NCBI GenBank assembly: GCA_050118395.1 | Contig: JASFKY010000003.1 | Span: forward strand, 1-42,104 | DNA: 42,104 nt | Direction of reading: 5' to 3' | Source: Myxococcales bacterium | GTDB taxonomy: Bacteria; Myxococcota_A; Polyangia; Polyangiales; Houyiibacteriaceae | In this document: piece after piece, positions 2 through 37,302 of the stretch | Layout: each line of letters opens with the position of its first letter | How positions within the stretch are numbered: position 1 is the stretch's first letter | Made by a program: the position numbers and the translations under genes | The notes under the pieces: model-generated | What the model was told of the DNA's origin: nothing | What the model saw: only the letters and a program-made list of their open reading frames with translations | Database searches by the model: none

Positions 2-1105
2 AGCCGTCCCTCCGACACGTGACACGCTCCGGCCGATGTCTACCGCGGGCCGCTGGTTTCGCACGAAAAGAGTCGTATCGAGATAGACTTGCCCATCGGT
101 GATCGAGATTAGATTCGTCGGGATGTACGAGGAAATGTCGCTATCCGTGGTCTCGACGATGGGGAAAGCAGTGATGGAACCGGCATGCTCACCTTTCGCG
201 AGCGCCGTTGCACGCTCGAGGAGTTGGGCATGGATGTAAAAGATGTCACCGGGAAAGGCTTCCCTCCCGGGCGGCCTCCCAAGAAGGAGGGCTAGCTCGC
301 GGTAGGCATCGGCATGCTTGGTCAAGTCGTCGTACACGATCAGGGCATCCTGGCCGAGATCCCGAAAGTACTCGGCTACCGTGGTGCCCGCGTAGGGAGC
401 GAGGTATTGCAGGCCCGGCGAGTCGCTTGCGTCCGACGCAATGATCACGGTGTTGGATAGGGCACCTGCTTTCTCGAGTGCCTCCCGGATACTCAACACT
501 CGGGACATCGGCTGTCCTATGACGACGTAGACACATACCACATCGCCTGCGCGCTGGGCTGCCACGATATCCAAAGCCAGCGCAGTCTTTCCCACGTTGC
601 GGTCGCCGACGATGAGCTGCCGCTGTCCGCGCCCGATCGGAATCGCACTGTCGATCACCATGACACCGGTTAGAAGCGGGCGGTCCACCGGTCCTCGCTC
701 GATCAGGGTGGGTGCCGGCCGAAATATCGGTTGGCGTTCTGCGGCCGGCGCCGGTCGCTCGTCCAGCGGCTGAGCGAGCGGATCGAGAACGCGCCCTAGG
801 ATCTCGCGACTCACGGGCAGGGACAGAGGGCTCCCAGTGGCCTCGACGCCTTCGCTCGCCCGAACGCGTTCGACGTTCCCGAGCAAAACGATGCCCGTGT
901 AGTCGGGTGCTAGCTCAGAGGCGATCCCCAACGCACCCGAGTCGAAGGCGACCAGCTCTTCGGAGCCCACATCTCGGAGCCCCACGGCCCGTGCCACCCC
1001 GTCACCCACTTGGACCACGGCTCCTCGAGGTTTCAGAGCTTGCCGTAGGTCGAGCTCCTCCTCGAGGCATCGAGCAACATCCGGTGCCAATGGCTCATCA
1101 GCGAT
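2..1105 (-). CDS. atpA: F0F1 (N-type) ATP synthase subunit alpha, 3'-truncated by window edge
   Basis: Not in the ORF track (no stop inside the window); translated by hand. Contains VQVGDGVARAVGL, IPIGRGQRQLIVGDRNVGKT (Walker A), YDDLTKHADAYRELALLLGRPPGREAFPGDIFY, YIPTNLISITDGQ and SVSRVGG. Start is uncertain: ATC at 1105 behind GAGGTGA, or TTG at 1090. Confidence 0.95.
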   Translation of the reverse strand, partial: MADEPLAPDVARCLEEELDLRQALKPRGAVVQVGDGVARAVGLRDVGSEELVAFDSGALGIASELAPDYTGIVLLGNVERVRASEGVEATGSPLSLPVSREILGRVLDPLAQPLDERPAPAAERQPIFRPAPTLIERGPVDRPLLTGVMVIDSAIPIGRGQRQLIVGDRNVGKTALALDIVAAQRAGDVVCVYVVIGQPMSRVLSIREALEKAGALSNTVIIASDASDSPGLQYLAPYAGTTVAEYFRDLGQDALIVYDDLTKHADAYRELALLLGRPPGREAFPGDIFYIHAQLLERATALAKGEHAGSITAFPIVETTDSDISSYIPTNLISITDGQVYLDTTLFVRNQRPAVDIGRSVSRVGGTA

Positions 1106-1838
1106 GGCTCACCTCTTCATTTCGGTGTTCGGTCGACCGAGCTCCAAGGCTGCTGACGGACCGACCGGCGCGTCTGGCAATGGAGGTCGCCGTAGCATCG
1201 ACCTGTCCGCCTCTCGTGGTCACGCGCACTCCGGCGCCAAGCTCGCCGACCACGCGCCCCTCGAACGCGTGGCCGAGCGTATCTTCGAGAAGCTTCCTTG
1301 CCTCATCATCCAGTGCACGAGCGCTCTCTACCAAAGCGGAGCCGCGCAGCTCGACTGGTATCTTTTCGAGCTCTGTACATGCCGCTCGGATCAGAGCCGT
1401 GTCGAGCGACGGGCCGGACAGCACCTCGAGAAGCTGCCGCACCGCTTCAGCGGCAACGCGTCCGATGGTCTCGGCGAGCGCGAGGGCCTCGGATTCACGA
1501 GTGGCATTGAGCTCTCGTTCGAGGACCTGACGTTCGTGCCGCTGCCTCTTCCTCGCCTCTTCGAGAAGTTCCGACGCCTCCTTTCGAGCGGCAACGAGGA
1601 TCTCTTGACGATGTTCTTGTAGCTCCTCGTCGAGCTCTTTGTGCGCGGCACGCGCCTTGTCGGCCAGGGATTCTGCCTCGGCACGCAGGCGCTTCGCCTC
1701 TTGGTCTTCTTTCTCGCGCTGCTGTCGCTCGTCGTCGAGAGCGCGGCGTACGGGCTTGAAGAGGATCCAGCCCAGCGCCGCCGCGAGCAGCAAGAAGTTC
1801 ACTGCCTCGAAGAGAAAGTTGGCGAGCATGGGGGACAC
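1098..1838 (-). CDS. atpF: ATP synthase F0 subunit b (long N-ATPase type with delta-like C-terminus)
   Basis: N-terminal TM (FEAVNFLLLAAALGWILFKPV), a long charged coiled coil and a C-terminal ELGAGVRVT segment. 246 aa, lying between atpE and atpA. Confidence 0.9.
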   Translation of the reverse strand: MSPMLANFLFEAVNFLLLAAALGWILFKPVRRALDDERQQREKEDQEAKRLRAEAESLADKARAAHKELDEELQEHRQEILVAARKEASELLEEARKRQRHERQVLERELNATRESEALALAETIGRVAAEAVRQLLEVLSGPSLDTALIRAACTELEKIPVELRGSALVESARALDDEARKLLEDTLGHAFEGRVVGELGAGVRVTTRGGQVDATATSIARRAGRSVSSLGARSTEHRNEEVSHR

Positions 1839-1844
1839 GCCGTC

Positions 1845-2105
1845 CTACCCTCCAGACACGAAAGGGTTCGCAAAAAGCAGCACGAGGGCGATGACCAGGC
1901 AGAAGATGGCCGTTGATTCCACCATGGCTAGTGCCACGAACTGGTTGCGTGTGATCGATCCAGACTCATCCGGTTGGCGCGCCAAAGCATCCATTCCGGC
2001 TGCGCCGATGCGGCTTTCACCGATCGCTGCCCCTATGGCGCCGACCGCCATGGTGAAAGCGGCGGCAATGATCGATCCAAGCGCGAGAATCGCGTGGTCC
2101 GTCAT
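1845..2105 (-). CDS. atpE: ATP synthase F0 subunit c
   Basis: Helical hairpin with the ARQP loop, GE in helix 1, ESTAIF in helix 2 and the LFANPF tail typical of N-ATPase c subunits. Confidence 0.97.
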   Translation of the reverse strand: MTDHAILALGSIIAAAFTMAVGAIGAAIGESRIGAAGMDALARQPDESGSITRNQFVALAMVESTAIFCLVIALVLLFANPFVSGG

Positions 2106-10801: not shown

Positions 10802-11554
10802 TTGGTTCAAACCCTTCAAGGTCAGAGCTTAGAGGAGCGTGTTGCCCATCTACAGCAGATGATGGATGCATCGAGCCCAGCGGTGCGTCAGGAGTATCAA
10901 GAGCGCTTCGACATCGCTTGGATTTATCACGATAGCGCTCTCGAGGGCGTCGTCTATTCGATGGACGAGCTCAAGTCGGCCATGCGGGAAGAGGGCGTGC
11001 CGGACCCCTCGCTGATTCCCGTCTACGACGAGATCCGAAACCACATGGGCGCGATTGCGATGATTCGCGAAATGGCGACCCGCAAGCGGGCCAACGTGAC
11101 GCTGGACGTGATCAAGAAGCTCTACGCGCAGCTCGCGCCCGAAGAGCTCGAAGGCAAAGGTCCGCCCACGTATCGAAAGGACATGCCGCTACACCGGCTC
11201 TACTTCCACGAAATTTCTCAGCCGGACAAGATCAGCTATCGGATGCGACAACTCGTTCAGTGGCTTTCCGACCCGGAAACCAAAAAGACGATGCATCCCG
11301 TGCGCATGGCCAGCAAGGCGCACTTCCAGCTGCTTCACATCTATCCGTTTCCCCGTCACAGCGGGAAGGTAGCCCGCTTGGTGATGAATCTGCTGCTCAT
11401 GAGGGGGGGCTATCCTCCGGTGATCATTCATGCCACCGAGCGGCAGCGCTATTACGAAGCGCTTCGAAATGGCGAGGACGCCACGGCGAATCTGATCAAT
11501 CAGGCGCTCGGGGCCGCCATCGAGACCGCGATTCAATACTTCGAGGAAATGTAA
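10802..11554 (+). CDS. Fic/Fido family protein with non-canonical active-site motif
   Basis: WIYHDSALEG (inhibitory-helix-like), HPVRMASKAHFQLLHIYPFPRHSGKVARLVMNLLLMRGGYPP and RQRYYEAL. TTG start 6 nt after GGAGG; alternative GTG at 10778. Confidence 0.85.
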   Translation: MVQTLQGQSLEERVAHLQQMMDASSPAVRQEYQERFDIAWIYHDSALEGVVYSMDELKSAMREEGVPDPSLIPVYDEIRNHMGAIAMIREMATRKRANVTLDVIKKLYAQLAPEELEGKGPPTYRKDMPLHRLYFHEISQPDKISYRMRQLVQWLSDPETKKTMHPVRMASKAHFQLLHIYPFPRHSGKVARLVMNLLLMRGGYPPVIIHATERQRYYEALRNGEDATANLINQALGAAIETAIQYFEEM

Positions 11555-11569
11555 TAGGGCAGGCCGCCG

Positions 11570-12151
11570 TCAGCCACTCTCGCAAAATCGAGGCAAGGCA
11601 GAAATCACGGCTAAGTAGCGCGCTCCGGCCGCCAGCGTGTCGTTTGCGTTTTCCGGCGTGATGCCGCCGATGGCCACCACCGGAGGCGAGACGGAAAGGC
11701 AGACGTGTCGCAATAGGCTCAAGCCCACCACCGGGTCCGGATTTTGCTTGGTGGTGGTCTCGAAGACCGGGCCCAAGGCGATGAGATCGGCTCCATCGCG
11801 TTCCGCCTCGAGGGCTTGCTCGAGGTTGTGGGTCGAGACGCCGATCGAGATGGACCCGACCACGGCGCGTGCTTGTCGCACTCTGAGATCGTTCTGACCG
11901 AGGTGAAGGCCATCGGCGCCTACCATGCGCGCGATGTCGGCGCGATCGTTGACCACGAAGGGAATACCGGCCTTCAGGCAGGATCGTCTGGCCCGAGTGG
12001 CCAACTCCAAAAGCTCGCGATCGTCGAGGGATTTGGCTCGGAGCTGCACCATGGCGCATCCGCTCGAAAGCGCCGTCTGCATCCACTCCAGAGGCCTTGG
12101 TGATACCTCGGCATCGATGATCGCATAGAGAGAATCAGCCCACGGGTTCAT
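11570..12151 (-). CDS. thiE: Thiamine-phosphate synthase
   Basis: VQLRAK, VVNDRADIA, GLHLGQND, IGVSTHN, GPVFETTTK and VAIGGI. Confidence 0.93.
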   Translation of the reverse strand: MNPWADSLYAIIDAEVSPRPLEWMQTALSSGCAMVQLRAKSLDDRELLELATRARRSCLKAGIPFVVNDRADIARMVGADGLHLGQNDLRVRQARAVVGSISIGVSTHNLEQALEAERDGADLIALGPVFETTTKQNPDPVVGLSLLRHVCLSVSPPVVAIGGITPENANDTLAAGARYLAVISALPRFCESG

Positions 12152-12998
12152 CACCGGTCAGCCTGCCGTACAGATCCGGGCGTCGATCCCGAAAAAAGCC
12201 CCAGTTGGCCCGGTAGCGCCGCAGCGCCGCCCGATCGAACGACGCCGTGGCGACGCCTTCTTCGTCGCGACCGAGCTCCGCCTCCATGTCGCCACGTTGG
12301 TTGCAGATGAACGAGCTTCCGTAGAAGGTCATCTCCGCTTCGATTCCGATGCGGTTGGCCGCAGCGACGGGCATCGCGTTGGCGACCGCGTGCCCCACCA
12401 TGACCCGTTGCCAAGGGTCCTTGGTGTCATCCATGGGAGCGCTGGGCTCGCTGCCGATGGCCGTCGGGTAGAGCAAGACCTCCGCGCCCAGCAAGGCCAT
12501 GCTGCGTGCGGCCTCTGGAAACCATTGGTCCCAACAGATCCCGACTCCGATCCGTCCGTGCCGGGTATTCCAAACCCGAAACCCGGTATCGCCGGGACGG
12601 AAATAGAATTTCTCCTCGTAGCCGACTCCGTCGGGGATGTGGCTCTTTCGATAAACGCCCAACTGCTCACCGTCGGCATCGATCATGACCAGGCTGTTGT
12701 AATAGCTCTGACCGGCGCGCTCGAAAAAGGAGATGGGCAGCACGACACCGAGCTCGGCCGCAAGCGATTGCATCCGGGCGACGGTGGGATGACCCTCGAG
12801 CGGGGCTGCCAAATCGAAGGCGCGCTCGTCTTCGCTCTGTGGGAAATAGGGACCCTCGAAAAGCTCCGGCGTGAGCACCACCTGTCCGCCTGCTTGCGCG
12901 GCTTTGCGGACTAGCTTTTCGATGCGGTCGACGTTGACCTCGCGCGTGTCGTGCAGAGCGCACTGAACGATTGCAATCGAAAGGGTGGTCGCGGTCAT
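12135..12998 (-). CDS. aguB: N-carbamoylputrescine amidase (nitrilase superfamily)
   Basis: PELFEGPYF, YRKSHIPDGVGYEEKFYF, GICWDQWFPEAAR and YPTAIGSEP; adjacent to aguA. Confidence 0.95.
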   Translation of the reverse strand: MTATTLSIAIVQCALHDTREVNVDRIEKLVRKAAQAGGQVVLTPELFEGPYFPQSEDERAFDLAAPLEGHPTVARMQSLAAELGVVLPISFFERAGQSYYNSLVMIDADGEQLGVYRKSHIPDGVGYEEKFYFRPGDTGFRVWNTRHGRIGVGICWDQWFPEAARSMALLGAEVLLYPTAIGSEPSAPMDDTKDPWQRVMVGHAVANAMPVAAANRIGIEAEMTFYGSSFICNQRGDMEAELGRDEEGVATASFDRAALRRYRANWGFFRDRRPDLYGRLTGDEPVG

Positions 12999-13993
12999 GG
13001 GGCCATGGGTTGAGGCTGGGTCACGCAGTGAAGCGCGCCTCCTCCCCATAGCAGGTCTCGGGCCGGCACGCCGACCACATCACGACCCGAAAACAAGCTC
13101 GCCAGCGCCGCAAGCGCCGTCTCGTCCTGCTCGATGGCGTAGGTGGGAACGAGGACCGCTTCGTTTGCCACGTAGAAGTTGCAGTAGCTGGCCGGCAAAG
13201 GAGCGCCGTCGGGCGCGGACACGGCGCAGGGAGCTGGCAACTCGACGACCGTCAGGCCGCTTGCCTGAAGCTCCGTGCGGATGGACTCCAAGATTGCAGC
13301 GTTTGGCGCGTCGCGCTGGGGGCGCATGCAGACCACCGAATCGGCAGAGACGAATCGCGCGATCATGTCGACGTGACCGTCGGTGTGATCGTGCTCGAGG
13401 CCTCGCTCGAGCCAGATCAGCCGTTTCATCACGACCTTCGCGCTCAATGCCTCTTCGAAGGCATCGCGCGTCAAGCCCGGATTGCGGTTGGGATTGAGCA
13501 CGCACGAGGCGGTGGTGAGGAAGGTCCCGGCGCCATTGCAGTCGAGGGCCCCGCCTTCGAGCACGACCGGGCATTCGAATCGACGTGCGCCCAGGTATTG
13601 CGTCAGCCATTTGCTGACCTGCGCATCGAAGGGCATTTCGTACTTTGCGCCCCAGCCGTTGAACTCGAAGCACAGGGCGCCGAGGGCATCCGATGCATCG
13701 TGTCCGAGCAGGGGGGCCGTGTCGCGAACCCAACAGTCGCCGTAGTCTGCCCGGACGTACTCCACTCGGTCGGAGCCGCCGATCAGGTTTCGAGCCTCGT
13801 CTTCGACCGCCTCGTCTTTGACCAGCAGTCGCACGGTCTCTCCGCCCACCTCCGCGATGGCACGACAAAGCTCTGCAATCGACCGCTGCGCCTCGGCGAG
13901 GCTTGCCGGCCATTCTTCGCGCAGGTGAGGAAAAGCCAACCAGCAGGCATCGTGCCGCTCCCACTCAGCCGGGACGCGAAGTCGTGGCTCCAC
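12995..13993 (-). CDS. aguA: Agmatine deiminase (peptidyl-arginine deiminase family)
   Basis: PAEWE, DCWVRDTAP, FNGWG, LEGGA, DHTDGHVD and GGALHCVTQPQP (catalytic Cys). Confidence 0.95.
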   Translation of the reverse strand: MEPRLRVPAEWERHDACWLAFPHLREEWPASLAEAQRSIAELCRAIAEVGGETVRLLVKDEAVEDEARNLIGGSDRVEYVRADYGDCWVRDTAPLLGHDASDALGALCFEFNGWGAKYEMPFDAQVSKWLTQYLGARRFECPVVLEGGALDCNGAGTFLTTASCVLNPNRNPGLTRDAFEEALSAKVVMKRLIWLERGLEHDHTDGHVDMIARFVSADSVVCMRPQRDAPNAAILESIRTELQASGLTVVELPAPCAVSAPDGAPLPASYCNFYVANEAVLVPTYAIEQDETALAALASLFSGRDVVGVPARDLLWGGGALHCVTQPQPMAP

Positions 13994-14002
13994 CGCGGGA
14001 AC

Positions 14003-15013
14003 CTACCACGGGAGCACCTTCGATTCACCGAACCGATCGATCATCGCCTGCACGTGCTCCAGCACCGCCACCCGCCTTTGCTCGAGACCTTGGAGCTGTC
14101 GTTGGTTGAGCACCGGCGCCAAGGGGTCGCTTCGTAAGCGTTCGGCGAATCGTTCGACGTCGAGTTGCCGCACCGCCTCGATGCTCGATCGGCGAAAGCG
14201 CTGAAGGGCTTTGAGCCGCGCCTCCATCAGCCCCAGGCGCTGCTGCCCGAGCCAGAAGCCCGCCCCGTTGTCGAGGTAGATCAGCGGACCGCCTGGCCCC
14301 CGTGTTCGCACGTTGGTGAAGTCACCTCCCCAACGGTCCACGTTTTGGGTGAGGTAGTCGAACACGATCAGGTCCGAGAGCTCCGCGGGCCGTCCCTCCA
14401 GATCCGGCCGTCCCGCCTCGGGTCGTCGGGGATCGGTGGCTTCACGAACGCCGGGGCGACCGTTGAGATCGGATCGGTAGTCGACCGGCCTTTGGTACGG
14501 AGTGATGGGCAGCGTCTTTTGGACGCGTACCCAGCGCTCCCACTTCCGGCCCATGCGCAGACGCTTCAGAGGCTCGGGGATCCACCAGATGAAGGCGCCC
14601 TGGAGGGTTCCGTCGGCATCGACTCGGAGCTCGGACACCCTCCGGTCGCCGTGCGCCGCGCTTTCGAGGTCACTCCAGGCCAATCGCCGTCCCGTCGTCG
14701 GCGGAACCCTGCCGAAACCGAGCTCTCGATCCAAGTAGTACGCCGCGACCTCGGAGTACCAGTGCGCGGCCGAGAACGTTTGCTTTGGCTTGAAATATCC
14801 CTTCGTCCCGTCTTCGAGCGTGATGAGAAACGCGAGGCTTCGGCCGCCTCGGCCCTTTTCGACTTCGGCGATCGGCTGGTGGCGTAGCGCTGCGACCCGC
14901 GGTGCGTCGGGCTCACCCAGGAAGGCGGGGCTTGTTTGCTTCGGGCTCTGCGTCGACGCGAGAAGCGGCCAACAAGCCGCGAACGCGAGCGCGATGAAAG
15001 GGATTCGCCGCAC
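14003..15013 (-). CDS. Secreted Fam20C/four-jointed-like atypical kinase
   Basis: Signal peptide (possible lipobox FAAC); GYFKPK, SEVAAYYLDRELGFGRVPPTTGR, VFDYLTQNVDR, LIYLDNGAGF and DPLAPVL, all colinear with Fam20 family motifs. Confidence 0.8.
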   Translation of the reverse strand: MRRIPFIALAFAACWPLLASTQSPKQTSPAFLGEPDAPRVAALRHQPIAEVEKGRGGRSLAFLITLEDGTKGYFKPKQTFSAAHWYSEVAAYYLDRELGFGRVPPTTGRRLAWSDLESAAHGDRRVSELRVDADGTLQGAFIWWIPEPLKRLRMGRKWERWVRVQKTLPITPYQRPVDYRSDLNGRPGVREATDPRRPEAGRPDLEGRPAELSDLIVFDYLTQNVDRWGGDFTNVRTRGPGGPLIYLDNGAGFWLGQQRLGLMEARLKALQRFRRSSIEAVRQLDVERFAERLRSDPLAPVLNQRQLQGLEQRRVAVLEHVQAMIDRFGESKVLPW

Positions 15014-15022
15014 TGGGCGAGT

Positions 15023-15988
15023 CTAGTCGGCCACGCCGATGAGGTCGATCTCTCGGCCTACCGATCGATCGCGCGCGAGCTCGAAGATCGCCCGAGCCAG
15101 TGCGACGTCCTGGATCGCCAGGCCGGTCGAATCGAAAACGGTCGTCGAACCAGCGGGGGGCTTCGAGAGGCGGCCTGCGACCACCTCACCGAGTGTTCCC
15201 GCAACGTCGTCGCGTGCAAACTCACCCTTCGCCAAGGGTACGTTGATCTCGCCGCTGCCGGTGGCTTGGTGGATGTCGTCGATGTACACCCTGGCGTTTT
15301 TCAGGACCTGGCTTTCGAGCTCCTGCTTGCCGGGCGCATCGGCGCCCATGGCATTGACGTGCGCGCCGGGTTGGATCCATTCGGCTCGAACGAACGGCGC
15401 TCGCGATGGCGTTGCAGTGCAAACGATGTCCGCGCCGGCCGCTTGCTGCAGGCTCACTACTTGGCCTCCGACCTCCGTCGCGAATCGCTCGGCGTTCTCC
15501 GAGCTCCGATCGTAGGCGAGGCTTTGGAAGTCGCCAAAGACCACCTTGTGGGCCGCGTAGAGCGTGCGGGCCTGTGTGCCGCAGCCGATGAACGCGACGG
15601 TCGAGGGCGGTTTGCAGACCAGAAACTTGGATGCGACGCCGCCTGCGGCCCCCGTTCGCAAAGCCGTGAGAGTGGTCCCATCCATGATGGCGAGAGGAAA
15701 TGCATTGGATGCGTCGTTCAAGACGTACACCGCCATCACCGTGGGTAGACCATGGCGCTTGCGATTGTGTGCGTGAACGTTGACCCATTTGATGCCTGCG
15801 AAGCGCCCGAGGCGCGCGGGCATCGCACGGAAGTCGCCATCATGGTCCTCGATCGGAAGGTAGACTTTGGGCGGCATGGTGGCTTCGCCCCGTCCAAACG
15901 CACCAAAGGCTTCCTCGACGGCTTGTACCGCAAGCTCCATCGTCGCGACCGACTCGACCTCGGCGCACGTCAATACCAGCGTTTTCAT
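15023..15988 (-). CDS. Ornithine cyclodeaminase/mu-crystallin family protein, archaeal-type alanine dehydrogenase-like
   Basis: GDFRAMPA, GIKWVNVH, LPTVMA, LTALRTGAAGG, GCGTQA, GADAPGKQE and FDSTGLAIQD. Confidence 0.9.
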   Translation of the reverse strand: MKTLVLTCAEVESVATMELAVQAVEEAFGAFGRGEATMPPKVYLPIEDHDGDFRAMPARLGRFAGIKWVNVHAHNRKRHGLPTVMAVYVLNDASNAFPLAIMDGTTLTALRTGAAGGVASKFLVCKPPSTVAFIGCGTQARTLYAAHKVVFGDFQSLAYDRSSENAERFATEVGGQVVSLQQAAGADIVCTATPSRAPFVRAEWIQPGAHVNAMGADAPGKQELESQVLKNARVYIDDIHQATGSGEINVPLAKGEFARDDVAGTLGEVVAGRLSKPPAGSTTVFDSTGLAIQDVALARAIFELARDRSVGREIDLIGVAD

Positions 15989-16072
15989 GCGTTCCTGTTC
16001 TGCCAAAAACCCCTGGGTCATGTCCCCAGGGCTGCAGTATAGTCCGCCGCGACCCGTGGATTGCAACCTGGG

Positions 16073-16495
16073 ATGAATATGACGCCTTCCGCACTTGCAT
16101 TGGTTGGTTACGCGGCATGGACGCTGCTTTTGGCCATCGTGTTGCTCGGCTATCGCACCGGGCTCGTGCTCGCCAAGCGACGAGCAGCCAATTCCTTCAG
16201 TCCGAGCGGAGAGGATGTTTCACCGTTTTCAGCTAGACTTTGTAGAGCGCACGCGAACTGTTACGAGAACCTCCCCGTCTTCGCTGCTTTGATCCTGATC
16301 GCGCTGGTGACCGACCACGCGGCCATCACCGATCCGCTGGCACGCTGGGTCTTGGTGGCGCGCGTAGCGCAGTCTTTGGTGCATCTGATCTCGACCAGCG
16401 AAGCCGCCGTGTCGATACGAGGGACGCTGTATTGGTTGCAGCTCGGGGCGGAAGCCTATTGGGTCGTCCAGTTGGGGCTTTTGGGCTTCGGCTGA
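16073..16495 (+). CDS. MAPEG family membrane protein
   Basis: RLCRAHANCYENLPVFA and VARVAQSLVH; four hydrophobic helices. Confidence 0.9.
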   Translation: MNMTPSALALVGYAAWTLLLAIVLLGYRTGLVLAKRRAANSFSPSGEDVSPFSARLCRAHANCYENLPVFAALILIALVTDHAAITDPLARWVLVARVAQSLVHLISTSEAAVSIRGTLYWLQLGAEAYWVVQLGLLGFG

Positions 16496-16503
16496 CCGGG
16501 GAC

Positions 16504-19500
16504 TCAGTGAAAGTCGCGGGATCGACGAGTCGATTCGGCGAGAGCGACGTCCGGTGTCCACAGCGACCGCGCGATTAGGTGCGTGACGCCATCCGCTTTT
16601 TGCAGCTCTCCGCTCACCCCCAGCAAGGAGGCCGTCTTGGCGATGATGGCATGGCGGTCGAATATGGGCTTCCACACGACGACGTTGACGAAGCCCGTTT
16701 CGTCTTCGAGAGTGAAAAACGTGACGCCGGAAGCAGTACCTGGACGCTGGCGACAGATCACCATCCCGACGTAATCGAGCTGCTCGCCATGCGCTCGGCC
16801 ATGCACGGTCGTGGCGTCGGGAATGCCCCTTGCAAGCAGTGCATGTCGGAGCCCATGCATTGGATGACCGCGAGTGCTGTGATCGCTGACCCGATAATCC
16901 CAGATCACTTCGTCATCGCCTGCCAGCGATGCAAAGGAGATCTGACTCGAAGCAGGCTCCAGCGGCAATGAATCCCGTATGAAGCGCGACAATCCGCGCA
17001 CCTGCCAGATCGCATCGCGTCGATTGAGCTCGAAGCAATCGAACGCCCCTGCTTCCGCAATCGAATGCAGTGCCTTGTTGTTGAGACCCGTCCGTCGAAC
17101 GAAGGTGGCAAGGTTGGGATAGGGTGGCCCACTTGCTTCGATCCGTCTTCGTTCGACGACGCCCAGCCCTTTCACGTAACGAAGCCCCATCCTCACGGCC
17201 CACGAAGAGGAGCCCCCGGGCTCGAGCGTGCAATTCCAGCGGCTCTTGTTGACGTCGATGGGTCGCACCTCGACTCCGTGTCGCTTGGCGTCTTCGACCA
17301 GCGTGGCTGGCGTGTAAAAACCCATGGGCTGCGAGTTCAAGATCGCACATGTGAACACGTCGTGATGGTGGCATCGGAGCCAAGCCGTGACGTAGGCGAG
17401 CAAAGCAAACGACGCGGCATGGCTTTCGGGAAAGCCATACTCGCCAAAGCCACGAATTTGCGAGAATACACGCTCGGCAAACCCTTCGGGAATGCCTTGC
17501 GCGATCATCCGAGGAATCATGCGAGCACGGTGCTTTTCGATGCGTCCCGACTTGCGCCATGCGGCCATGTCCCGGCGAAGTTGGTCTGCTTCTCCCGGTG
17601 TGTACCCAGCGGCTTCGACCGCCAGCTTCATGACCTGCTCTTGGAAGATCGGCACGCCCAAAGTCTTTTTCAAGATGCGTTCCAGGTTGGGATGGGGATA
17701 GAAGATTTCTTCTTCGCCCTTTCGACGCCGCAAATACGGATGGACCATGTCTCCTTGAATCGGCCCAGGACGAACGATTGCGACCTCGATCACCAAATCG
17801 TAAAAGGTGCGTGGTCGAAGCCTGGGCAGCATGGCCATTTGTGCGCGGCTTTCGATTTGAAAGACGCCGACGGTGTCTCCTTCGGACACCATGTCGTAGG
17901 TGGCTTCGTCTTCCGCCGGGACACTTGCAATCTCGAGGGACATCCCCTTGTGCTCATGCAAGAGATCGAATGCGTGGTGAATACAGGTCAGCGCACCTAG
18001 ACCGAGCAGATCGACTTTGAACAACGCGAGGTTGTCGACGTCGTACTTGTCCCACTGAATCACCGTGCGGGCCTCCATCGTGGCCGGCTCGATGGGAACG
18101 ATCTGGTCGACGGGGCGGTCGCCGAGCAGAAATCCGCCCGGATGAATCGACAAATGTCGAGGAAAATCGAGAACTTCTGAAGCAAGGGACCATAGGTGTC
18201 GAGTCGCTGGCGCATTGCCTTCGAGACCTGCTTCTCGGAGTAGGTCCGGATCGAGCACGTCATCGCGATGGCGAAGCAAGCGCGTGGCCGTCTCCAGGTC
18301 CGTGCGAGACAAACCAAGCACCTTGCCGACGTCACGCACGGCTGAACGAATGCGGTAACGAATGACGTTTGCAACCATCGCTGCGTATCGACGCCCGTAC
18401 TTTTCGTATACGTGTTGAATGACTTCCTCGCGACGGTCGTGCTCGATGTCGAGATCGATGTCGGGAGGCTCGGCTCGCTCCACGCTCAAAAATCGCTCGA
18501 ACAAGAGATCCATTCGGACCGGATCGATTGCCGTGATTCCCAAACAGAAACACACGGTACTGTTGGCGGCGCTGCCTCTTCCTTGACACAAGATGTCGTG
18601 ATGCCGGCAATACTGGACGATTCCATGCATCGTCAGAAAGTAGCCTCCACAATCGAGCCTTTGAATGATTTGGAGCTCGCGTTCTATTTGATTGCGAACC
18701 TCGACGGGGATGGTGCCGTGGTAGCGTTCGAAGGCACCGCGAAACGTGAGCTCGCGCAACCAGCCTTGCTCGGTTTGCCCATGTGGCAAATGCTCTTCGG
18801 GATATCGATAGTGAATGTCGTCCAGGCTGAAAGAGCACTGTTCGGCGATGTCCAAAGTGCGCCGTAGGCATTTGGGATCATCCGCAAAGAGATGGGCCGC
18901 TTCGTCGAACGATCTCAGATAGTGCTCGGCGTTCGGGCGGGTGATTCGGCCTGCTTCCGAAAGCACTTTACCCGCACGAATACAAGCCAAAACGTCCTGT
19001 AGAGGGCGCCGGGCTTTGTCGTGGTAGAGGACCTCGTTGGCGCCCACCGCATGGATGCCTAGATCCCGGGCTGTCGCTCGAAGGGCTCGTTCCTTCGGCT
19101 TGTCGTGTTCGCTGAGGTGACGCGCACAAAGAGCAAACAGAGCGGACGGCCCTCGAAGGGTATGTAGCGCGCGCAAGGGCTCGGGCGTCGCGCACAGGAA
19201 AAACAAATCGCGCGCTTCTCGAAGATCGTCCAACTCGACCAACGAAAAACCTTTTTCACGACGCGCGTGTCCGAGCGAGATCGCTCTACAAAGGTCGGCA
19301 TAGCCGCGCCGTGTCTTTGCCAGGGTGATGATGTGATGCATCGCACCCTCGACGTCGACGGTGAGTTGTGCGCCGACTAGGATACGGATGCCCAAATCCT
19401 TGGCCCGCATGTGGGCTCTCACCAGGCCGTACACACCGTCACGATCGGTCACTGCAATGGCTCGAAGACCGAGCGCATGAGCTCGCTCCACCAGCTCTTC

Positions 19501-19566
19501 GGGAAACGAAGCGCCTTCCAGAAAGCTGTGGTTGCTCTTGACCCACAACGGAACGTAAGCGCTCAT
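16504..19566 (-). CDS. dnaE2: Error-prone DNA polymerase DnaE2
   Basis: PHP domain (SNHSFLEGAS), QGRGSAANS, PPDIDLD, GFPESHA, OB fold (RQRPGTASG...LEDETG) and the C-terminal SRDFH DnaE2 signature. Confidence 0.98.
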   Translation of the reverse strand: MSAYVPLWVKSNHSFLEGASFPEELVERAHALGLRAIAVTDRDGVYGLVRAHMRAKDLGIRILVGAQLTVDVEGAMHHIITLAKTRRGYADLCRAISLGHARREKGFSLVELDDLREARDLFFLCATPEPLRALHTLRGPSALFALCARHLSEHDKPKERALRATARDLGIHAVGANEVLYHDKARRPLQDVLACIRAGKVLSEAGRITRPNAEHYLRSFDEAAHLFADDPKCLRRTLDIAEQCSFSLDDIHYRYPEEHLPHGQTEQGWLRELTFRGAFERYHGTIPVEVRNQIERELQIIQRLDCGGYFLTMHGIVQYCRHHDILCQGRGSAANSTVCFCLGITAIDPVRMDLLFERFLSVERAEPPDIDLDIEHDRREEVIQHVYEKYGRRYAAMVANVIRYRIRSAVRDVGKVLGLSRTDLETATRLLRHRDDVLDPDLLREAGLEGNAPATRHLWSLASEVLDFPRHLSIHPGGFLLGDRPVDQIVPIEPATMEARTVIQWDKYDVDNLALFKVDLLGLGALTCIHHAFDLLHEHKGMSLEIASVPAEDEATYDMVSEGDTVGVFQIESRAQMAMLPRLRPRTFYDLVIEVAIVRPGPIQGDMVHPYLRRRKGEEEIFYPHPNLERILKKTLGVPIFQEQVMKLAVEAAGYTPGEADQLRRDMAAWRKSGRIEKHRARMIPRMIAQGIPEGFAERVFSQIRGFGEYGFPESHAASFALLAYVTAWLRCHHHDVFTCAILNSQPMGFYTPATLVEDAKRHGVEVRPIDVNKSRWNCTLEPGGSSSWAVRMGLRYVKGLGVVERRRIEASGPPYPNLATFVRRTGLNNKALHSIAEAGAFDCFELNRRDAIWQVRGLSRFIRDSLPLEPASSQISFASLAGDDEVIWDYRVSDHSTRGHPMHGLRHALLARGIPDATTVHGRAHGEQLDYVGMVICRQRPGTASGVTFFTLEDETGFVNVVVWKPIFDRHAIIAKTASLLGVSGELQKADGVTHLIARSLWTPDVALAESTRRSRDFH

Positions 19567-21048
19567 TCAATCCAGCACTCCGTGCAAAAACCATCGCTTC
19601 CGAGGGCGGTCGTAGAAAAGCCAGAGGAAATCTCCCCGATCGGTTTCGGCGTAGTAGTAATCGCGTTCGACCAAGCGCTTCCACCAACCACCGCTGACCC
19701 GATAAGGACCATACAGGTGCTCGATCGCCTGGTTTGCCCCGAGCGCAGGACCGGCTTCCGGCATTTGGGGCTCCCGTGGCCGCAATGCCTTGGGTTTCGC
19801 ATAAACACGCCTGATCATTGATGAAATTGCTGGGACTGCGCCCTTGGTGCTGACCGGGGCACGATCGATTGGCTCCCATTGGAAAGAGGCTTCCGGCAAA
19901 TGCGCTTCACGGATCCGAGCCCTGACCACCGAATGCTCTCCATATGCGGCACGGATTCGGGCGAGCGCGCGATGGGCGGCGCCCATGTCACGAGGAGGTT
20001 GATGCCCAGGTAGGGGAGCTTGCTCTGCGGCCGCCCGGACGGTCGTGGCGAGGAGCTCTACGTCTTCGACGGCGCCTGACAGTTGGGTTTCGCCGAGTCG
20101 AAGGCGAATCAACTCGAGCAGCAACATGAGATCCAACGTTGCAGAGGCAGGTTCGAGGTGTTCGCGATGAGTGGAAGCTCGTTCCAGTCGAAGAGACAAA
20201 TCCAACGATTGAATTGCTTCTCCACGTGCCCGCACCTGGTGCAGCAACGAGTGAAGAGCGCCTTTCAATGCAAAAAGAAGACGATGCTGATCGTCGTCGG
20301 GCGGATCGACTTGAAAAGAAATTCGGGCCGGCTCATCGAAGCCACGCGGCTGAATGGGAAGCTGAAGACCCTCTGCAAAAGAATCATGAAGCGAGCTTGC
20401 CTCGGCCCCGAAACGGCTATGCAGCTCTCCTGCCGGAACGGACAGAAAGTCGCCCAAGGTTTCGATGCCCAACGCATGCAAGCCTTCGCAGACCTCCCCG
20501 GGCAGATCGAACAATCGAAGCGGGACCTCGTTTGATTTGGCGCATTCTTCTTGAGGGCTTTCGATGACGTTGACCCCACCACCGGTCATCGCAACGGCCA
20601 ATGCTCGATGACGATGAAACCCCACGGTTACCGTGTTTTGCCAACGTCGTGCCCGCAAATAGCGGTGAATGCAGGTTGCCCAGTTGCGATGGCCGCCATA
20701 GAGGCTCCTCAATCCTTCCGGATCGACGTGGAATGCGCCGCAATGAGCGCTTGCTTCGACTTTGGGCGAAAAGGTTTGAAGCGAGGCGACTAGATCTTCG
20801 ATGACGCGCGACTTTTGCTCGGTCGATACGACTGCAGTGCGCAAGTGAGGCAATAGATCGCGCGCCACGATTTGGCGCATTCCAATGTGCAGGCGGCTCT
20901 TTCGAGCGAGCTCGTTCAGGTGTGTGATGCGGCCATGGGGCCCTTCGTCATCGACGATGGCCACCGGCCACCTCTGCCAGTTGGGTTTTTCGTGAAAGAG
21001 AATTTGCAATGGAAGCACGGGCAACAAAACGCAGCTCGTTCGCTTCAT
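19567..21048 (-). CDS. imuB: ImuB (inactive Y-family polymerase, mutasome scaffold)
   Basis: Y-family fold elements (LHALGIETLGDF, ELHSRFG), C-terminal GPYRVSGGWW...RDYY...WFLHG; between imuA and dnaE2. Confidence 0.93.
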   Translation of the reverse strand: MKRTSCVLLPVLPLQILFHEKPNWQRWPVAIVDDEGPHGRITHLNELARKSRLHIGMRQIVARDLLPHLRTAVVSTEQKSRVIEDLVASLQTFSPKVEASAHCGAFHVDPEGLRSLYGGHRNWATCIHRYLRARRWQNTVTVGFHRHRALAVAMTGGGVNVIESPQEECAKSNEVPLRLFDLPGEVCEGLHALGIETLGDFLSVPAGELHSRFGAEASSLHDSFAEGLQLPIQPRGFDEPARISFQVDPPDDDQHRLLFALKGALHSLLHQVRARGEAIQSLDLSLRLERASTHREHLEPASATLDLMLLLELIRLRLGETQLSGAVEDVELLATTVRAAAEQAPLPGHQPPRDMGAAHRALARIRAAYGEHSVVRARIREAHLPEASFQWEPIDRAPVSTKGAVPAISSMIRRVYAKPKALRPREPQMPEAGPALGANQAIEHLYGPYRVSGGWWKRLVERDYYYAETDRGDFLWLFYDRPRKRWFLHGVLD

Positions 21049-21677
21049 GACGTCCCTCGCAAACCTACTGGAGCAATGGAAGGGATTGGGGACGGCTCGG
21101 CGCCGAGACCGACTTTGTCTTTCAAAATCGTCGTATGGACTTGGAATTGATCGGCACGAAGGCTGCCGCGCTTGGGCTCGATGCGAAGACCCACCAAGGG
21201 ACCCGAAGAAGGATCTTCGTGCGTGTTGGAGGTGAGGAGGAGAACGAGGCCGTCGTACTGACGCATCATGCCTTGAAGGCGGCCTTGCCAGTTGACCGAG
21301 GACCCGGGTGGGGTCGCATCCGTGAGATCGAGCACGGTCAATCCAAATGCACCAGAGCGAGCGAGCCATTCCGCTGCTCGGATGGGTGCAAATGGGCCCG
21401 CAGCGCCCGGCACCTGAATGACGAGGAAACAATCGAGGTCGACTCCCGCGGCATCGAGATCGGGAGGGAACAAAGATCCGTCTTTGGGCTGTACCCAAGC
21501 GACGAGCTCGCCACGCGCTTGCGCTTGGATCACGCAGGAAACCGCCGTGGTCGTTCGAGCACAGGCATGCCGCCCCGACAGCTCCACCAACCGTGCCCGG
21601 GGCAGCAGCTCCGAAAGCGGCAAAGTCTTGGCCAAGACCCGCGGTTGCTCGGTTTCGATGGGGGTCCCAAAAGCCAT
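21045..21677 (-). CDS. imuA: ImuA (RecA-like mutasome accessory protein)
   Basis: LPRARLVELSG, degenerate Walker A GRHACARTT, LFPPDLDAAGVDL and LARSGAFGLTVLD; first gene of the cassette. Confidence 0.88.
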   Translation of the reverse strand: MAFGTPIETEQPRVLAKTLPLSELLPRARLVELSGRHACARTTTAVSCVIQAQARGELVAWVQPKDGSLFPPDLDAAGVDLDCFLVIQVPGAAGPFAPIRAAEWLARSGAFGLTVLDLTDATPPGSSVNWQGRLQGMMRQYDGLVLLLTSNTHEDPSSGPLVGLRIEPKRGSLRADQFQVHTTILKDKVGLGAEPSPIPSIAPVGLRGTS

Positions 21678-21731: not shown

Positions 21732-23502
21732 CCGTCAAAACGAAGCGATTTCAGACCCTTAGGCAGAACCGGAGCAACCTCGGATCGCGTCGATGGCTTC
21801 TTGGTAGGACAAAGAACGAGTGGTGGTACCAAGCGCGGCGGAGGCGATACGGACCCGTCTTGCCGCGGGGTTTCCATCGTCGACAATCGCGAGGACCGCC
21901 TCGCGGACCGAACCCGAAAGCGAAGCCTCCAACACCTCGGCGCTCGCAGCCTGCAGCTGCGGGTCGTCGCTGCACAACCCTCGCCAAAGCAATCCGAAAT
22001 TTTCACCAGGCCGTAGCAAAGCCATCAACGAGAACGTCCGTTCCAACGCAGCCCGTTCCTTGTCGCGCAATGCGGTTTGCAACGACTCGCCGTCTGCAGC
22101 GCGGACGGGCCCACGGCCTTCGATGGCAGCACGCCACTGAAGAAGCTCGATGAGGCGAATCAGGCTCGACCTGAGCTGATCTTCCAATACCGCGTCATCG
22201 AGGCCGGCATTGGGCGCATCTTCATACAGGCGGCCGAGCGTCCGAACGAAACGAAGACGCGATCGAAATTGATCTACGTATCTCTGCCGTGTCGATACGA
22301 TGAGCAGCAACCAACCAGACGCAAAAAGAAGCAGGACGATACCAAGTTGCGCGATCGAGATCCCGAACGCGATGGAGAAGATGATCAGCAACGATGCGAG
22401 TCCCTGTCCCACGCGATGACCGAACACTTCGATCATGCCTTTGGCCTGTTCACGTCGACGGCGATCGAGGGGCAGAAACAGCACTTCCACCGAGCCTCGA
22501 TACAGCGTGTGGCGCAAGCTGCCATCGAATGCCTTGAGAGCCACGGCAAAGGGAAGAACCGGCCCCAGGGTCAAGCCTACGGCCCCGCCCATGATCAGCA
22601 CCGGCAGCAGGGCCAAGCTCCGGTGAGCGCCGAGCCCGCGTAGAAGCCAACCCGCGCCGACGAGCTGGACGACCAAAGCGACTGCATTGAGACCCAGGTA
22701 AAAACGAGCGAAAAAGAGCCCGAGACGGGCGGTGGCGACGTGCTGAGCCACGGTGCTCTTGAAGACGAAATCGACGAACGTGAGCGCGATTGTTCCCATC
22801 AGCACCACAGTCAGCAACCGCGAGACGTAGCCATCGGTGACGAGCTGCCCGAGCGAGGGTCGCGGTGCGTCGTCGATCGACTGCATCGGCTGTGTCCCGT
22901 CGTGGACCTTCCAAAGAAAAGCAGTCGCCGCTGCAATTGCCAGGATGATTGCCGCCGAGACGACCAGGCCGGAGGGCGCGATCAATCGAAGCAAACGTTC
23001 CGAGAGCAGGGAGCCCAAAGTTGCGCCGGTCACGCCGCCTGCTGCAACCGCAGGGAAGATGCGCTTGGCTTGGGCCACCGTCACCGCATCGTCGAGCAAG
23101 AGCCAGAATTCGATCAAGACGACCGTGATCAACAGCCCCGTCCAGACGTAAAAGCCAAATGGAGCCCATGCGCCCATGTCCTCGAGCAACGCCCAGAAGC
23201 CCAAAGTCACCAAGGAGCCGAAAACCAGCGATGCGGCGAGCAAGGCACGGCGATCGCGAACGTGAGGTAGCAAGCGCCGGTGGATCGCGAGCTCCGCGAT
23301 GGCCAGCAAGGCAATGGCCAAGTAGGCCCGTGGAAGGTCGGTTGCCGGCAAGTTGGTCAGGAAAAGGGTATCGCGCGCCGTTTCCATCACGGAATGGGCG
23401 GTCATGATCGCCATCAGGGTCACGAAGCCGACCGCGAGGTTTGCGCGATCCTCTCGACGAACCGAAAAGCGCATGCGTGACGAGCACGGTACCGTCAAAA
23501 CG
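21732..23502. repeat. 11-bp direct repeat CCGTCAAAACG (21732-21742 and 23492-23502) flanking the NTT-like gene
   Basis: Exact copies in the two short intergenic regions on either side of 21759..23474. Confidence 0.5.
21759..23474 (-). CDS. Npt1/Npt2 (TLC, ADP/ATP carrier)-like MFS transporter with short helical C-terminal tail
   Basis: About 12 TMs; ETARDTLFL, FYVWTG, QAKRIFP, DFVFKS, DGSLRHTLYRGSVEVLFLPL and AKGMIE. Alternative start at 23498. Confidence 0.75.
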   Translation of the reverse strand: MRFSVRREDRANLAVGFVTLMAIMTAHSVMETARDTLFLTNLPATDLPRAYLAIALLAIAELAIHRRLLPHVRDRRALLAASLVFGSLVTLGFWALLEDMGAWAPFGFYVWTGLLITVVLIEFWLLLDDAVTVAQAKRIFPAVAAGGVTGATLGSLLSERLLRLIAPSGLVVSAAIILAIAAATAFLWKVHDGTQPMQSIDDAPRPSLGQLVTDGYVSRLLTVVLMGTIALTFVDFVFKSTVAQHVATARLGLFFARFYLGLNAVALVVQLVGAGWLLRGLGAHRSLALLPVLIMGGAVGLTLGPVLPFAVALKAFDGSLRHTLYRGSVEVLFLPLDRRRREQAKGMIEVFGHRVGQGLASLLIIFSIAFGISIAQLGIVLLLFASGWLLLIVSTRQRYVDQFRSRLRFVRTLGRLYEDAPNAGLDDAVLEDQLRSSLIRLIELLQWRAAIEGRGPVRAADGESLQTALRDKERAALERTFSLMALLRPGENFGLLWRGLCSDDPQLQAASAEVLEASLSGSVREAVLAIVDDGNPAARRVRIASAALGTTTRSLSYQEAIDAIRGCSGSA

Positions 23503-32010: not shown

Positions 32011-32058
32011 CGGTCGGACCTTGCCTCCAATCCAGCCGAGGTGCTACCGGAGAGGCCC

Positions 32059-33012
32059 ATGCGTTTGGTCTTCGTGATGGATCCGGTGTCTACGGTGATC
32101 GTGGACGAGGACACCAGCTTCGCCTTGATGCTCGAGGCGCAATCTCGAGGCCATCGAGTGGATCATTGCCTGGCCAGCGACGTGGGGCTTCGCGGGCAGC
32201 AAGTCATTGCACGCGTGCGCCGCGCCAGCATGCAACGCGACCCTTCGGAGCCGATCACCCTGGACGAGCCCGAAGACATCGATCTCGGAGACGTCGATGC
32301 GGTGTTCATCCGCAAAGATCCCCCGTTCACCGATGCGTACCTATGGTTGACGCTGGTGCTCGACCACCTCGAGGGACGTACGCTCGTGGTGAACAGTCCG
32401 CGCGGGCTTCGTGAAGCCAACGAGAAGCTCTACGCGCACCATTTCCCCCAGATCGTCCCACCTACCATCATGACCAGTCACAAGGACGAGGTATTGCGGT
32501 TCCTGCAAGACGTGGGCGGAAAGGGAGTGATCAAGCCCATCGACGGACACGGTGGCGAAGGCGTATTCGTGCTGTCCATCGGCGACACGAACCTGCATGG
32601 TCTGATCGAGGCCGTGACTCACACGGGAAGGCGCAATGCGATCGTGCAAGCTCTCCTTCCAGAAGTCTACGATTTCGGTGACAAACGCATCCTACTCGTC
32701 GATGGCGAGTTGTTGGGAGTGGTTGGACGGGTACCCCGTCAAGGCGACATCCGCAGCAACGTGCACGTGGGCGGCTCCGCCAAGCTGGCTTCACTCGACG
32801 AGGCCGACCTACAAATCATCGAGACGATCAAGCCGCGCCTGGTCACCGACGGGCTGTTTTTCGTGGGTCTAGACGTCATCGGGGGGCGGCTCATCGAAGT
32901 CAACGTGACGAGCCCCACGTTGATTCAGCAGATGGCGCGTCTCACCGGCGAGAATCTTTGTGCCACCGTCATCGATCGGCTCGAAGACAAAGTGCACGCC
33001 TACGGGCAATAA
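32059..33012 (+). CDS. gshB: Glutathione synthetase
   Basis: MRLVFVMDP, DTSFALMLEAQSRG, IRKDPP, ANEKL, GDKRILL, RSNVHVGG and IEVNVTSPT. Confidence 0.96.
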   Translation: MRLVFVMDPVSTVIVDEDTSFALMLEAQSRGHRVDHCLASDVGLRGQQVIARVRRASMQRDPSEPITLDEPEDIDLGDVDAVFIRKDPPFTDAYLWLTLVLDHLEGRTLVVNSPRGLREANEKLYAHHFPQIVPPTIMTSHKDEVLRFLQDVGGKGVIKPIDGHGGEGVFVLSIGDTNLHGLIEAVTHTGRRNAIVQALLPEVYDFGDKRILLVDGELLGVVGRVPRQGDIRSNVHVGGSAKLASLDEADLQIIETIKPRLVTDGLFFVGLDVIGGRLIEVNVTSPTLIQQMARLTGENLCATVIDRLEDKVHAYGQ

Positions 33013-37241: not shown

Positions 37242-37302
37242 GGTGTCAGCGTCCCTATTCCGAGCTACGTACACGGCCCCACGCCGCTGAGCAAGCATCG
37301 GG

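Follow-up and report, generated by a model that had tools for sequence, protein, structure and literature searches.

The gene analyzed here lies in a 42,104-nucleotide (nt) stretch of DNA from a Myxococcales bacterium (Polyangiales; Houyiibacteriaceae; assembly GCA_050118395.1, contig JASFKY010000003.1, positions 1 to 42,104 of the forward strand), hereafter the window. Coordinates are positions in the whole window, and (-) denotes the minus strand. The gene, termed fam20-like, encodes P0001, a protein of 336 amino acids (aa). The sequences of P0001 and its relatives indicate that it is a real, conserved and exported bacterial enzyme with the fold of the animal Fam20 kinases, and that it belongs to a large bacterial family. 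The gene and the features recognized in its product are:

14003 to 15013 (-): fam20-like gene encoding P0001 (336 aa; start GTG, stop TAG)
14948 to 15013 (-): predicted signal peptide, from about residues 1-19 to 1-22 (MRRIPFIALAFAACWPLLA, then STQ), most likely of Sec type I by rule
14006 to 14929 (-): kinase domain, about residues 29-336, aligning with the entire Fam20 kinase domain in profile and model
14789 to 14791 (-): Lys75 in YFKPK, the putative β3 ATP-binding lysine, aligned to the Lys of the FAM20C FKP motif
14750 to 14752 (-): Glu88 in SEVAAY, the putative canonical helix-C glutamate, from profile alignment and conservation
14336 to 14338 (-): Asp226 in NVDR, the putative catalytic-base equivalent, from profile alignment and conservation
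14270 to 14272 (-): Asp248 in LDNGAGF, the putative metal-binding equivalent of the DFG Asp, from profile alignment and conservation

The original prediction was of a secreted kinase of the animal Fam20C/Fam20B/four-jointed type, and the motifs on which it relied are present and colinear in the translation: YFKPK (residues 73-77), SEVAAYYLDRELGFGRVPPTTGR (87-109), VFDYLTQNVDR (217-227), LIYLDNGAGF (244-253) and DPLAPVL...LEQRRVAVLEHVQAMIDRFG (296-329). P0001 matched the Pfam Fam20C profile PF06702 with 39 bits (curated gathering cut-off 26.8; E 8.9e-10; profile positions 88-217 of 218), and the same profile was matched by 95 of 116 relatives. A search of NCBIfam with the protein gave nothing close to a cut-off. 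With phmmer against Protein Data Bank (PDB) sequences, FAM20C was found at E 3.5e-13, and FAM20A, hydra Fam20 and C. elegans Fam20 (ceFam20) also matched, every chain in two colinear stretches. The alignment of the 116 relatives (A1) is the basis of the conservation counts and of the structure model reported below. Used as a profile against the PDB, A1 reached FAM20C at E 7.5e-43, with profile positions 90-356 aligned to chain residues 106-430 and all four motif blocks in register. Zebrafish Fam20C (2.6e-39), FAM20A (1.7e-34), hydra Fam20 (3.3e-33) and ceFam20 (7.6e-33) followed, and the first non-Fam20 chain was PI4K2A (E 0.016).

The AlphaFold2 model built from A1 had a predicted local distance difference test (pLDDT) score of 95.4 and a predicted template modelling (pTM) score of 0.91. 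When it was compared with known structures by Foldseek, ranks 1-28 were all Fam20 chains, and not another fold. Residues 26 to 336 of the model superpose on Fam20 structures, giving root-mean-square deviations (rmsd) of 2.8-3.5 Å at 22-26% identity, and the predicted three-dimensional architecture is that of Fam20. Because PF06702, the family profile, the model and Foldseek all give Fam20, P0001 is a genuine Fam20 homologue, and the likeness is far beyond chance. The proposed Fam20-type identity is borne out by the family profile, which reaches FAM20C over the whole kinase domain, and nothing named in advance as grounds for withdrawing it was encountered. The profile and Foldseek matches are to Fam20, and P0001 is unlikely to be a mislabelled CotH or HipA relative. 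The CotH spore-coat kinases (PDB 5jd9, 5jda) and HipA/CtkA are atypical kinases from bacteria that fall, broadly, into one clan with P0001. The type II phosphatidylinositol 4-kinases (PDB 4hnd, 8a5x) scored about 10 Z units below Fam20 and gave no family-level sequence match.

Like Fam20C, the Golgi casein kinase (PDB 5yh3, 5yh0, 4kqa/4kqb), P0001 carries colinear FKP, E-x-AA-x-x-LDR, FD-x-L-x-x-N-x-DR and LDNG-x-GF motifs, the C-terminal helix pair, a Phe-Ser before helix C and an N-terminal signal for a secretory route. Unlike Fam20C, to which it is 22-26% identical, it is about 60-100 residues shorter. The four disulfides of animal Fam20, described in the available part of PMC5865150, have no counterpart in P0001: Cys is absent after residue 28, and the domain is likewise free of Cys in 109 of 120 close relatives. 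The β3 Lys, the catalytic Asp of D-R-H and the metal-binding Asp of D-N-G that mark Fam20 are represented by K75, D226 and D248, which align with those of FAM20C. Among the 116 relatives of A1, K75 is kept in 111, E88 in 109 (with Asp in 6 more), D226 in 113, R227 in 116, D248 in 116 and N249 in 102. D219 (116/116), N224 (114/116), N234 (115/116) and a Gly-rich GG(R/T/S)S stretch are also conserved. The ATP-binding Lys, helix-C Glu, catalytic Asp and metal-binding Asp had been described as intact, and the alignment agrees, each being kept in 109-116 of the 116 relatives. Judged from these alignments, the catalytic core is intact and the active-site surround is distinct and simpler.

The N-terminus of P0001, MRRIPFIALAFAACWPLLASTQ, is built like a Sec signal: basic residues come first, a hydrophobic core follows, and small residues close it. 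Cys14 within it gives a weak lipobox-like AFAAC. In 60 close homologues the same N-terminal pattern recurs in other letters, mostly without the Cys, and is followed by a conserved AFLGEPDAPRI. Relatives at 38-55% identity usually have a lipobox Cys and then an Ala/Pro-rich linker. A simple rule placed a hydrophobic N-terminal segment in 117 of 120 close relatives and in 77 of 94 representatives (a lipobox-like Cys in 40 of the 94), and several of the exceptions resemble gene calls shortened at the start. By this rule P0001 has the secretory or extracytoplasmic entry expected of a Fam20 protein, as originally proposed, and the export signal appears to be a family trait, of Sec type in P0001 and a lipobox in many relatives.

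A protein homology search gave 733 matches, the best 120 of which are 72-100% identical. Representative clusters at 50% identity numbered 828 at E ≤ 1e-3, 347 at ≤ 1e-10 and 77 at ≤ 1e-30. Among the matches listed (the best 120 of 733 and the best 150 of 828) all appear bacterial by Pfam labels, titles and genome matches. The ESM Atlas cluster with P0001, automatically named Fam20 domain-containing protein, has 258 members, all from Bacteria, with Myxococcota as the commonest phylum. Each of the 41 related genomes gave a match. The window's genus supplies 25 of these, three of which match just as pieces cut by contig ends. Among the 16 genomes from other families of the order, E is ≤ 1e-48 in 12, between 1e-18 and 1e-24 in three, and marginal (6.6e-4) in the remaining one. 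Orthologues are spread through Polyangiales. PF06702 had no match in the 14 control genomes.

The A1 profile was positive in at least 87 of 301 Myxococcota genomes. The family is spread over the whole class to which the window belongs and reaches a few further families (f26, 26/26), and with this profile it was not found in several other Myxococcota families (0/23, 0/14 and 0/18). The titles of the best 80 of 215 relatives name Polyangiales, Polyangiaceae, Sandaracinaceae, Myxococcales, Myxococcota or 'delta proteobacterium' metagenome-assembled genomes, and a few just 'uncultured bacterium' or 'uncultured proteobacterium'. Most genomes hold the orthologue and a paralogue of about 339 aa.

The same data bear on a recent acquisition of the gene from an animal, or a contamination of the assembly, a thought in line with the available text of reviews, which treats Fam20 as an animal family. 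Against this origin, the gene occurs in all 41 related genomes and its flanks are conserved, it lacks introns, its GC content (0.656 over 14001-15000) matches the surroundings, the signal peptide is bacterial and the genome holds a second paralogue; moreover, identity to the animal structures is 22-26%, and the family fills 828 clusters at 50% identity. Animal transfer or contamination was rejected on distribution, GC, low identity and synteny, and its probability is negligible.

The second Fam20-like paralogue of the same genome (G000) lies on another contig (C27, locus L002, about 1000-1899, plus strand), flanked by genes for an acyl-CoA dehydrogenase and a histidine-kinase-like protein. Its product has a hydrophobic N-terminus and scores 24.7-25.5 bits against PF06702, just below the cut-off; most genomes of the genus hold both members. 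A search with P0001 for fused or longer forms (>588 aa) found none, which is weak evidence. With the A1 profile, distant Fam20-like C-terminal domains were seen within open reading frames (ORFs) of 700-1300 aa in another Myxococcota family (570-1260 aa at loci L111-L116 and L119; genomes G045, G069, G058, G242, G228 and G208). Several of these long ORFs open with a zinc-ribbon-like CxxC...CxxC (CPGC...CPxC) segment, and Pfam found no domain in nine of them except one weak Zn_ribbon_4.

The fam20-like gene stands in a same-strand run with four other genes:

15023 to 16066 (-): OCD-like gene of the ornithine cyclodeaminase/mu-crystallin family, upstream (Pfam PF02423, E 1.9e-92)
12995 to 13993 (-): aguA-like agmatine deiminase gene, downstream (Pfam PF04371, E 8.1e-103)
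12135 to 13049 (-): aguB, N-carbamoylputrescine amidase (TIGR03381, 434 bits vs. a cut-off of 410)
11570 to 12154 (-): thiE, thiamine phosphate synthase, the final gene of the run (Pfam PF02581, E 9.1e-60)

The aguA-like product scored 219 bits against TIGR03380, under the cut-off of 381.8, and the ORF coordinates make Met18 at 12998, overlapping the aguA stop, the likely start of aguB. In the raw sequence the OCD-like stop (TAG, 15025-15023) is followed after 9 nt by the fam20-like GTG at 15013, and the fam20-like stop (TAG, 14005-14003) after 9 nt by the aguA GTG at 13993, so both gaps are exactly as first described. A scan of 11000-16700 found no promoter-like site and five terminator-like ones (4.0 expected), none above the shuffled controls. 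The fam20-like gene probably shares a transcript with aguA, aguB and thiE. When the window copy was compared with 49 loci of the genus, the fam20-like protein had a median identity of 74.3%, and the values for AguA, ThiE, the OCD-like protein, AguB and DnaE2 were 66.6%, 67.2%, 71.0%, 78.7% and 80.0%; purifying selection on the fam20-like gene is as strong as on neighbouring housekeeping genes.

The neighbourhood was surveyed by tblastn of the window proteins on the loci of the best 80 of 215 relatives (species-representative genomes; found with a 39-sequence alignment), which split into 50 at ≥ 71.6% identity (genus) and 30 at 49-62% (distant). In the genus, aguA lies ≤ 100 nt downstream in all 48 loci with enough flank. 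Of the 29 distant loci with enough flank, 5 have aguA within 100 nt, 7 have it farther off (101-6000 nt) but on the same strand, and 2 have it nearby in another orientation; it is absent from 15, including the Sandaracinaceae-labelled ones. The OCD-like gene is within 300 nt upstream in 30 of the 48 genus loci, at 301-6000 nt in 13 and absent in 5, and this neighbour is not conserved. The insert that displaces it in some members of the genus is a DUF1552/DUF1592 pair on the opposite strand. Such pairs, DUF1552 (HXXSHH) plus DUF1592/1588/1595/1585/1587, stand between the OCD-like and fam20-like genes at 2706-5799 of L066 and 2172-5539 of L076, and where the pair is inserted the fam20-like gene heads its run. 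The order of the wider block is kept, with thiE, Fic, TlpA-like and HisK genes on one side and MAPEG, DnaE2 and ImuB genes on the other, and some loci at about 55% identity (L098, L096) retain most of it. In the window, 16504-21498 (-) encodes a DnaE2 error-prone polymerase (1020 aa) and then a 643-aa ORF that is ImuB-like and matches nothing in Pfam at 1e-6; the two form a mutagenesis cassette that is conserved beside the block in relatives.

The gene had been placed in a polyamine operon, and as a partner of that pathway P0001 might, for example, be a kinase or sensor that acts outside the cell on agmatine, on putrescine or on a guanidino or amino compound akin to them, and so feeds or regulates AguA/AguB. 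The gene order behind this proposal is real: the OCD-like, fam20-like, aguA, aguB and thiE genes form one run in which the fam20-like gene is set off by 9-nt gaps, aguA is constant within the genus, and beyond it 12 of 29 loci have aguA on the same strand and no more than 6 kb away. However, the flanking genes, including some of unrelated function, are all syntenic (ImuB-DnaE2...fam20-aguA-aguB-thiE-Fic-TlpA-HisK), and because they keep the same order the aguA adjacency is part of a syntenic backbone of unrelated genes. The adjacency fades outside the genus, where 15 of 29 loci have no aguA in reach, the OCD-like neighbour is variable, and the second paralogue of the same genome lies away from polyamine genes. 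No signal peptide was found on AguA, AguB or the OCD-like protein, so they and P0001 belong to different compartments. Neither a linkage beyond inherited synteny nor a shared compartment, as an agmatine deiminase operon would have it, was found for the fam20-like gene. The width of the block, the fading outside the genus and the neighbours' lack of signal peptides make a functional tie to the polyamine genes unlikely, and a polyamine partner is highly improbable. The aguA adjacency is inherited gene order, and a shared pathway is not supported.

A different neighbour was found in distant loci, where Pfam scans of the flanking ORFs showed an NAGPA-type phosphodiester glycosidase (PF09992) adjoining the fam20-like gene. 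By tblastn, 10 of the 30 distant loci have NAGPA upstream (L084, L085, L086, L089, L091, L095, L096, L097, L103 and L110), divergent in 9 and on the same strand in 1, and it also stands beside the fam20-like gene in L016, L017, L022 and L023; the 50 genus loci showed none. PF09992 occurs in 10 of the 16 genomes from other families, and in 6 of those 10 one copy adjoins the Fam20 orthologue. In animals, Fam20 and NAGPA are both 'Golgi-type' enzymes. In Sandaracinaceae-labelled loci the neighbours are instead a PPDK_N-domain protein and an HD/receiver protein.

We consider it reasonably probable that P0001 is an exported Fam20-fold kinase that phosphorylates an extracytoplasmic substrate and whose gene order is inherited. 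The Sec signal peptide would carry P0001 across the inner membrane; many relatives would instead use a lipoprotein signal and an Ala/Pro-rich tether. In the periplasm, at the cell surface or outside the cell, P0001 would bind a divalent-metal nucleotide and transfer phosphate to an extracytoplasmic acceptor. Glu88, conserved and aligned with Glu218, the canonical helix-C Glu of ceFam20 (PMC5865150, available part), is probably the direct partner of Lys75, the arrangement of canonical kinases. The loop preceding helix C is about 12 residues shorter than in Fam20C and is without the extra acid of Fam20. Metal-nucleotide-dependent phosphorylation of an extracytoplasmic acceptor is, as read from the sequence, the most likely mechanism. 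The export trait and the conservation of the four catalytic residues support the extracytoplasmic protein or glycan kinase that the original prediction had in mind.

The acceptor may be a sugar or envelope-glycan hydroxyl, which we propose tentatively, or, with a lower probability, a protein Ser/Thr. We lean toward a glycan because (i) the Arg that blocks the sugar pocket in Fam20C is Ala in P0001; (ii) the Cys-Tyr-Tyr-Cys loop of Fam20C is absent; (iii) a conserved aromatic residue, Trp228, lies beside the catalytic Asp; and (iv) among distant orthologues, the back-to-back neighbour is a gene for an NAGPA-type sugar-phosphodiester glycosidase. Trp228 follows the catalytic Asp where Fam20 has His (W 94, F 17 and Y 3 of 116), and Ala251 replaces the Lys of Fam20B or Arg of Fam20C (A 65, L 14, M 9 and S 8 of 116). 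P0001 resembles Fam20B and the hydra Fam20 xylosylkinase (PDB 5xom, 5xoo) in being simpler, without the dimer motifs and the bulky pocket Arg of Fam20C; in the available part of PMC5865150 the Fam20B/hydra type is held to be the older animal form.

A Fam20C-like protein kinase would act on Ser/Thr of secreted or periplasmic proteins, perhaps in acidic S-x-E-like motifs, in the envelope or in material released by other cells. Such an enzyme would fit a profile E-value that is best for Fam20C (7.5e-43 vs. 3.3e-33 for the hydra glycan kinase), the Phe-Ser pair termed 'clash 1' (Phe80-Ser81), which is retained, and the loss of the residues that contact Gal-Xyl. By alignment, however, the Phe-Ser pair is the only mark of Fam20C that remains: the DFFYFSD motif (D/N-F/H-F-Y-F-S/T-D), the C-x-Y-Y-C loop (C-D/S-Y-Y-C), the pocket Arg ('clash 3') and the F-x-S-P dimer motif are missing, and no recurrent acidic Ser-rich substrate gene adjoins the fam20-like gene in the loci surveyed. 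We therefore rate this alternative as unlikely.

Several points weigh against an exported kinase with a glycan acceptor. We know of no ATP available in the periplasm. The export assignment comes from the simple rule, and the residue mapping from HMMER sequence alignments and not from model coordinates. By this mapping none of the mappable Fam20B Gal-Xyl pocket residues (hydra Thr114, Gln115, Tyr148-Asp152, His301, Lys321) is kept, in which P0001 differs from Fam20B and hydra Fam20: Thr114/Gln115 correspond to Arg58/Ser59, His301 to Trp228 and Lys321 to Ala251, and the Tyr-Glu-Gly-Tyr-Asp loop to a shorter Phe80-Ser81-Ala82-Ala83. To our knowledge, bacteria make no proteoglycan linker. In Fam20C the counterpart of the retained Phe80-Ser81 clashes with the sugar. 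PF09992 was found in none of the 25 genomes of the window's genus (completeness 80-100%), so NAGPA pairing cannot explain function here, and NAGPA as an obligatory partner in this genus was rejected. The pairing, though old, is dispensable; it gives a hint of phospho-glycan chemistry but no proof of anything for the P0001 gene.

Also on this side of the balance is Ala83, five residues before Glu88. In the available part of PMC5865150, a Fam20-specific acid pairs with the Lys (Glu213 in ceFam20, Asp152 in hydra), and a Gln at this position contributes to the pseudokinase state of Fam20A. The acid is replaced by Ala83 in P0001, and position 83 is A in 41, S in 35, T in 21, G in 5 and E in 4 of the 116 relatives (A/S/T/G, 102).

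P0001 might, then, be no phosphotransferase and serve as a pseudokinase that binds a ligand or partner, or perform other chemistry, such as nucleotidyl transfer as in SelO or glutamylation as in SidJ. The exchange of the ion-pair acid for a small residue and an extracytoplasmic ATP supply that is unexplained would fit this, as would other atypical kinase folds that, in the parts of the literature available, proved not to be kinases. The catalytic Asp, metal-binding Asp/Asn, β3 Lys and helix-C Glu are, however, each kept in 102-116 of 116 relatives, as for an active enzyme, and the Gly-rich GG(R/T/S)S stretch is conserved; this possibility is, in our view, quite improbable. An exported, active kinase remains the preferred explanation.

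In connection with the ATP supply of such a kinase, a 579-aa TLC/NTT-like membrane protein with a helical C-terminal extension is encoded 7 kb away, at 21759-23498 (-) of the window. Its match to Pfam PF03219 (28.7 bits; cut-off 21) was confined to the final ~85 profile positions (the last two helices), and it scored 33.6 bits against TIGR00769, whose cut-off is 387. Relatives of this transporter occur in 127 of 301 Myxococcota genomes. The transporter was present in 6/6 genomes of family f38, 6/9 of f33, 7/18 of f40 and 5/26 of f26, as against 0/6, 0/9, 0/18 and 26/26 for the Fam20-like family. The transporter was dropped as the kinase's ATP supply, because it shows no specific co-occurrence with the Fam20-like family.

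The likeness of the bacterial family to Fam20 is already visible in databases, through automatic Fam20-domain labels; a literature search found no characterization of a bacterial Fam20. Fam20 is discussed in animals alone in the available text of a 2021 review (PMC7948968) and of Zhang et al., 2018 (PMC5865150). A kinome survey, in the part available, treats it as eukaryote- or Metazoa-specific, and the accessible text of a 2025 review (PMC12292773) refers to an absence of secretory kinases in bacteria. A 2026 preprint (10.64898/2026.05.08.723234), in its available part, names FAM20B as one of up to five contributions that Myxococcota may have made to endomembrane functions of eukaryotes and cautions about weak signal.

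On a speculative reading that we judge unlikely as a whole, the Polyangia and related Myxococcota would hold old, diversified, exported and disulfide-free minimal Fam20 kinases, ancestrally paired with NAGPA, which phosphorylate envelope or extracellular glycans with extracytoplasmic ATP and were, in place of an invention within animals, the source of animal Golgi Fam20B/Fam20C by gene transfer. If this were true, bacteria would have phosphorylation of the luminal type, implying an unrecognized nucleotide supply to the periplasm or cell surface. The bacterial branch offers a simple, cysteine-free and bacterially expressible model of the Fam20 fold, and opens the question of where the animal enzymes came from to a phylogenetic test. 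It also raises a biochemical question, namely the role and the nucleotide source of an ATP-dependent kinase fold outside the bacterial cytoplasm.

The source DNA occurs in wetland, soil and marsh metagenomes. Elsewhere in the window, 30505-33012 (+) encodes an 835-aa protein whose C-terminal 320 residues are a glutathione synthetase (GSH-S_N and GSH-S_ATP) and whose first ~500 residues have no Pfam match at 1e-6. Isoprenoid genes, for a diphosphomevalonate decarboxylase-like protein, a polyprenyl synthetase and an FMN-dependent dehydrogenase, are grouped at 34325-38343.

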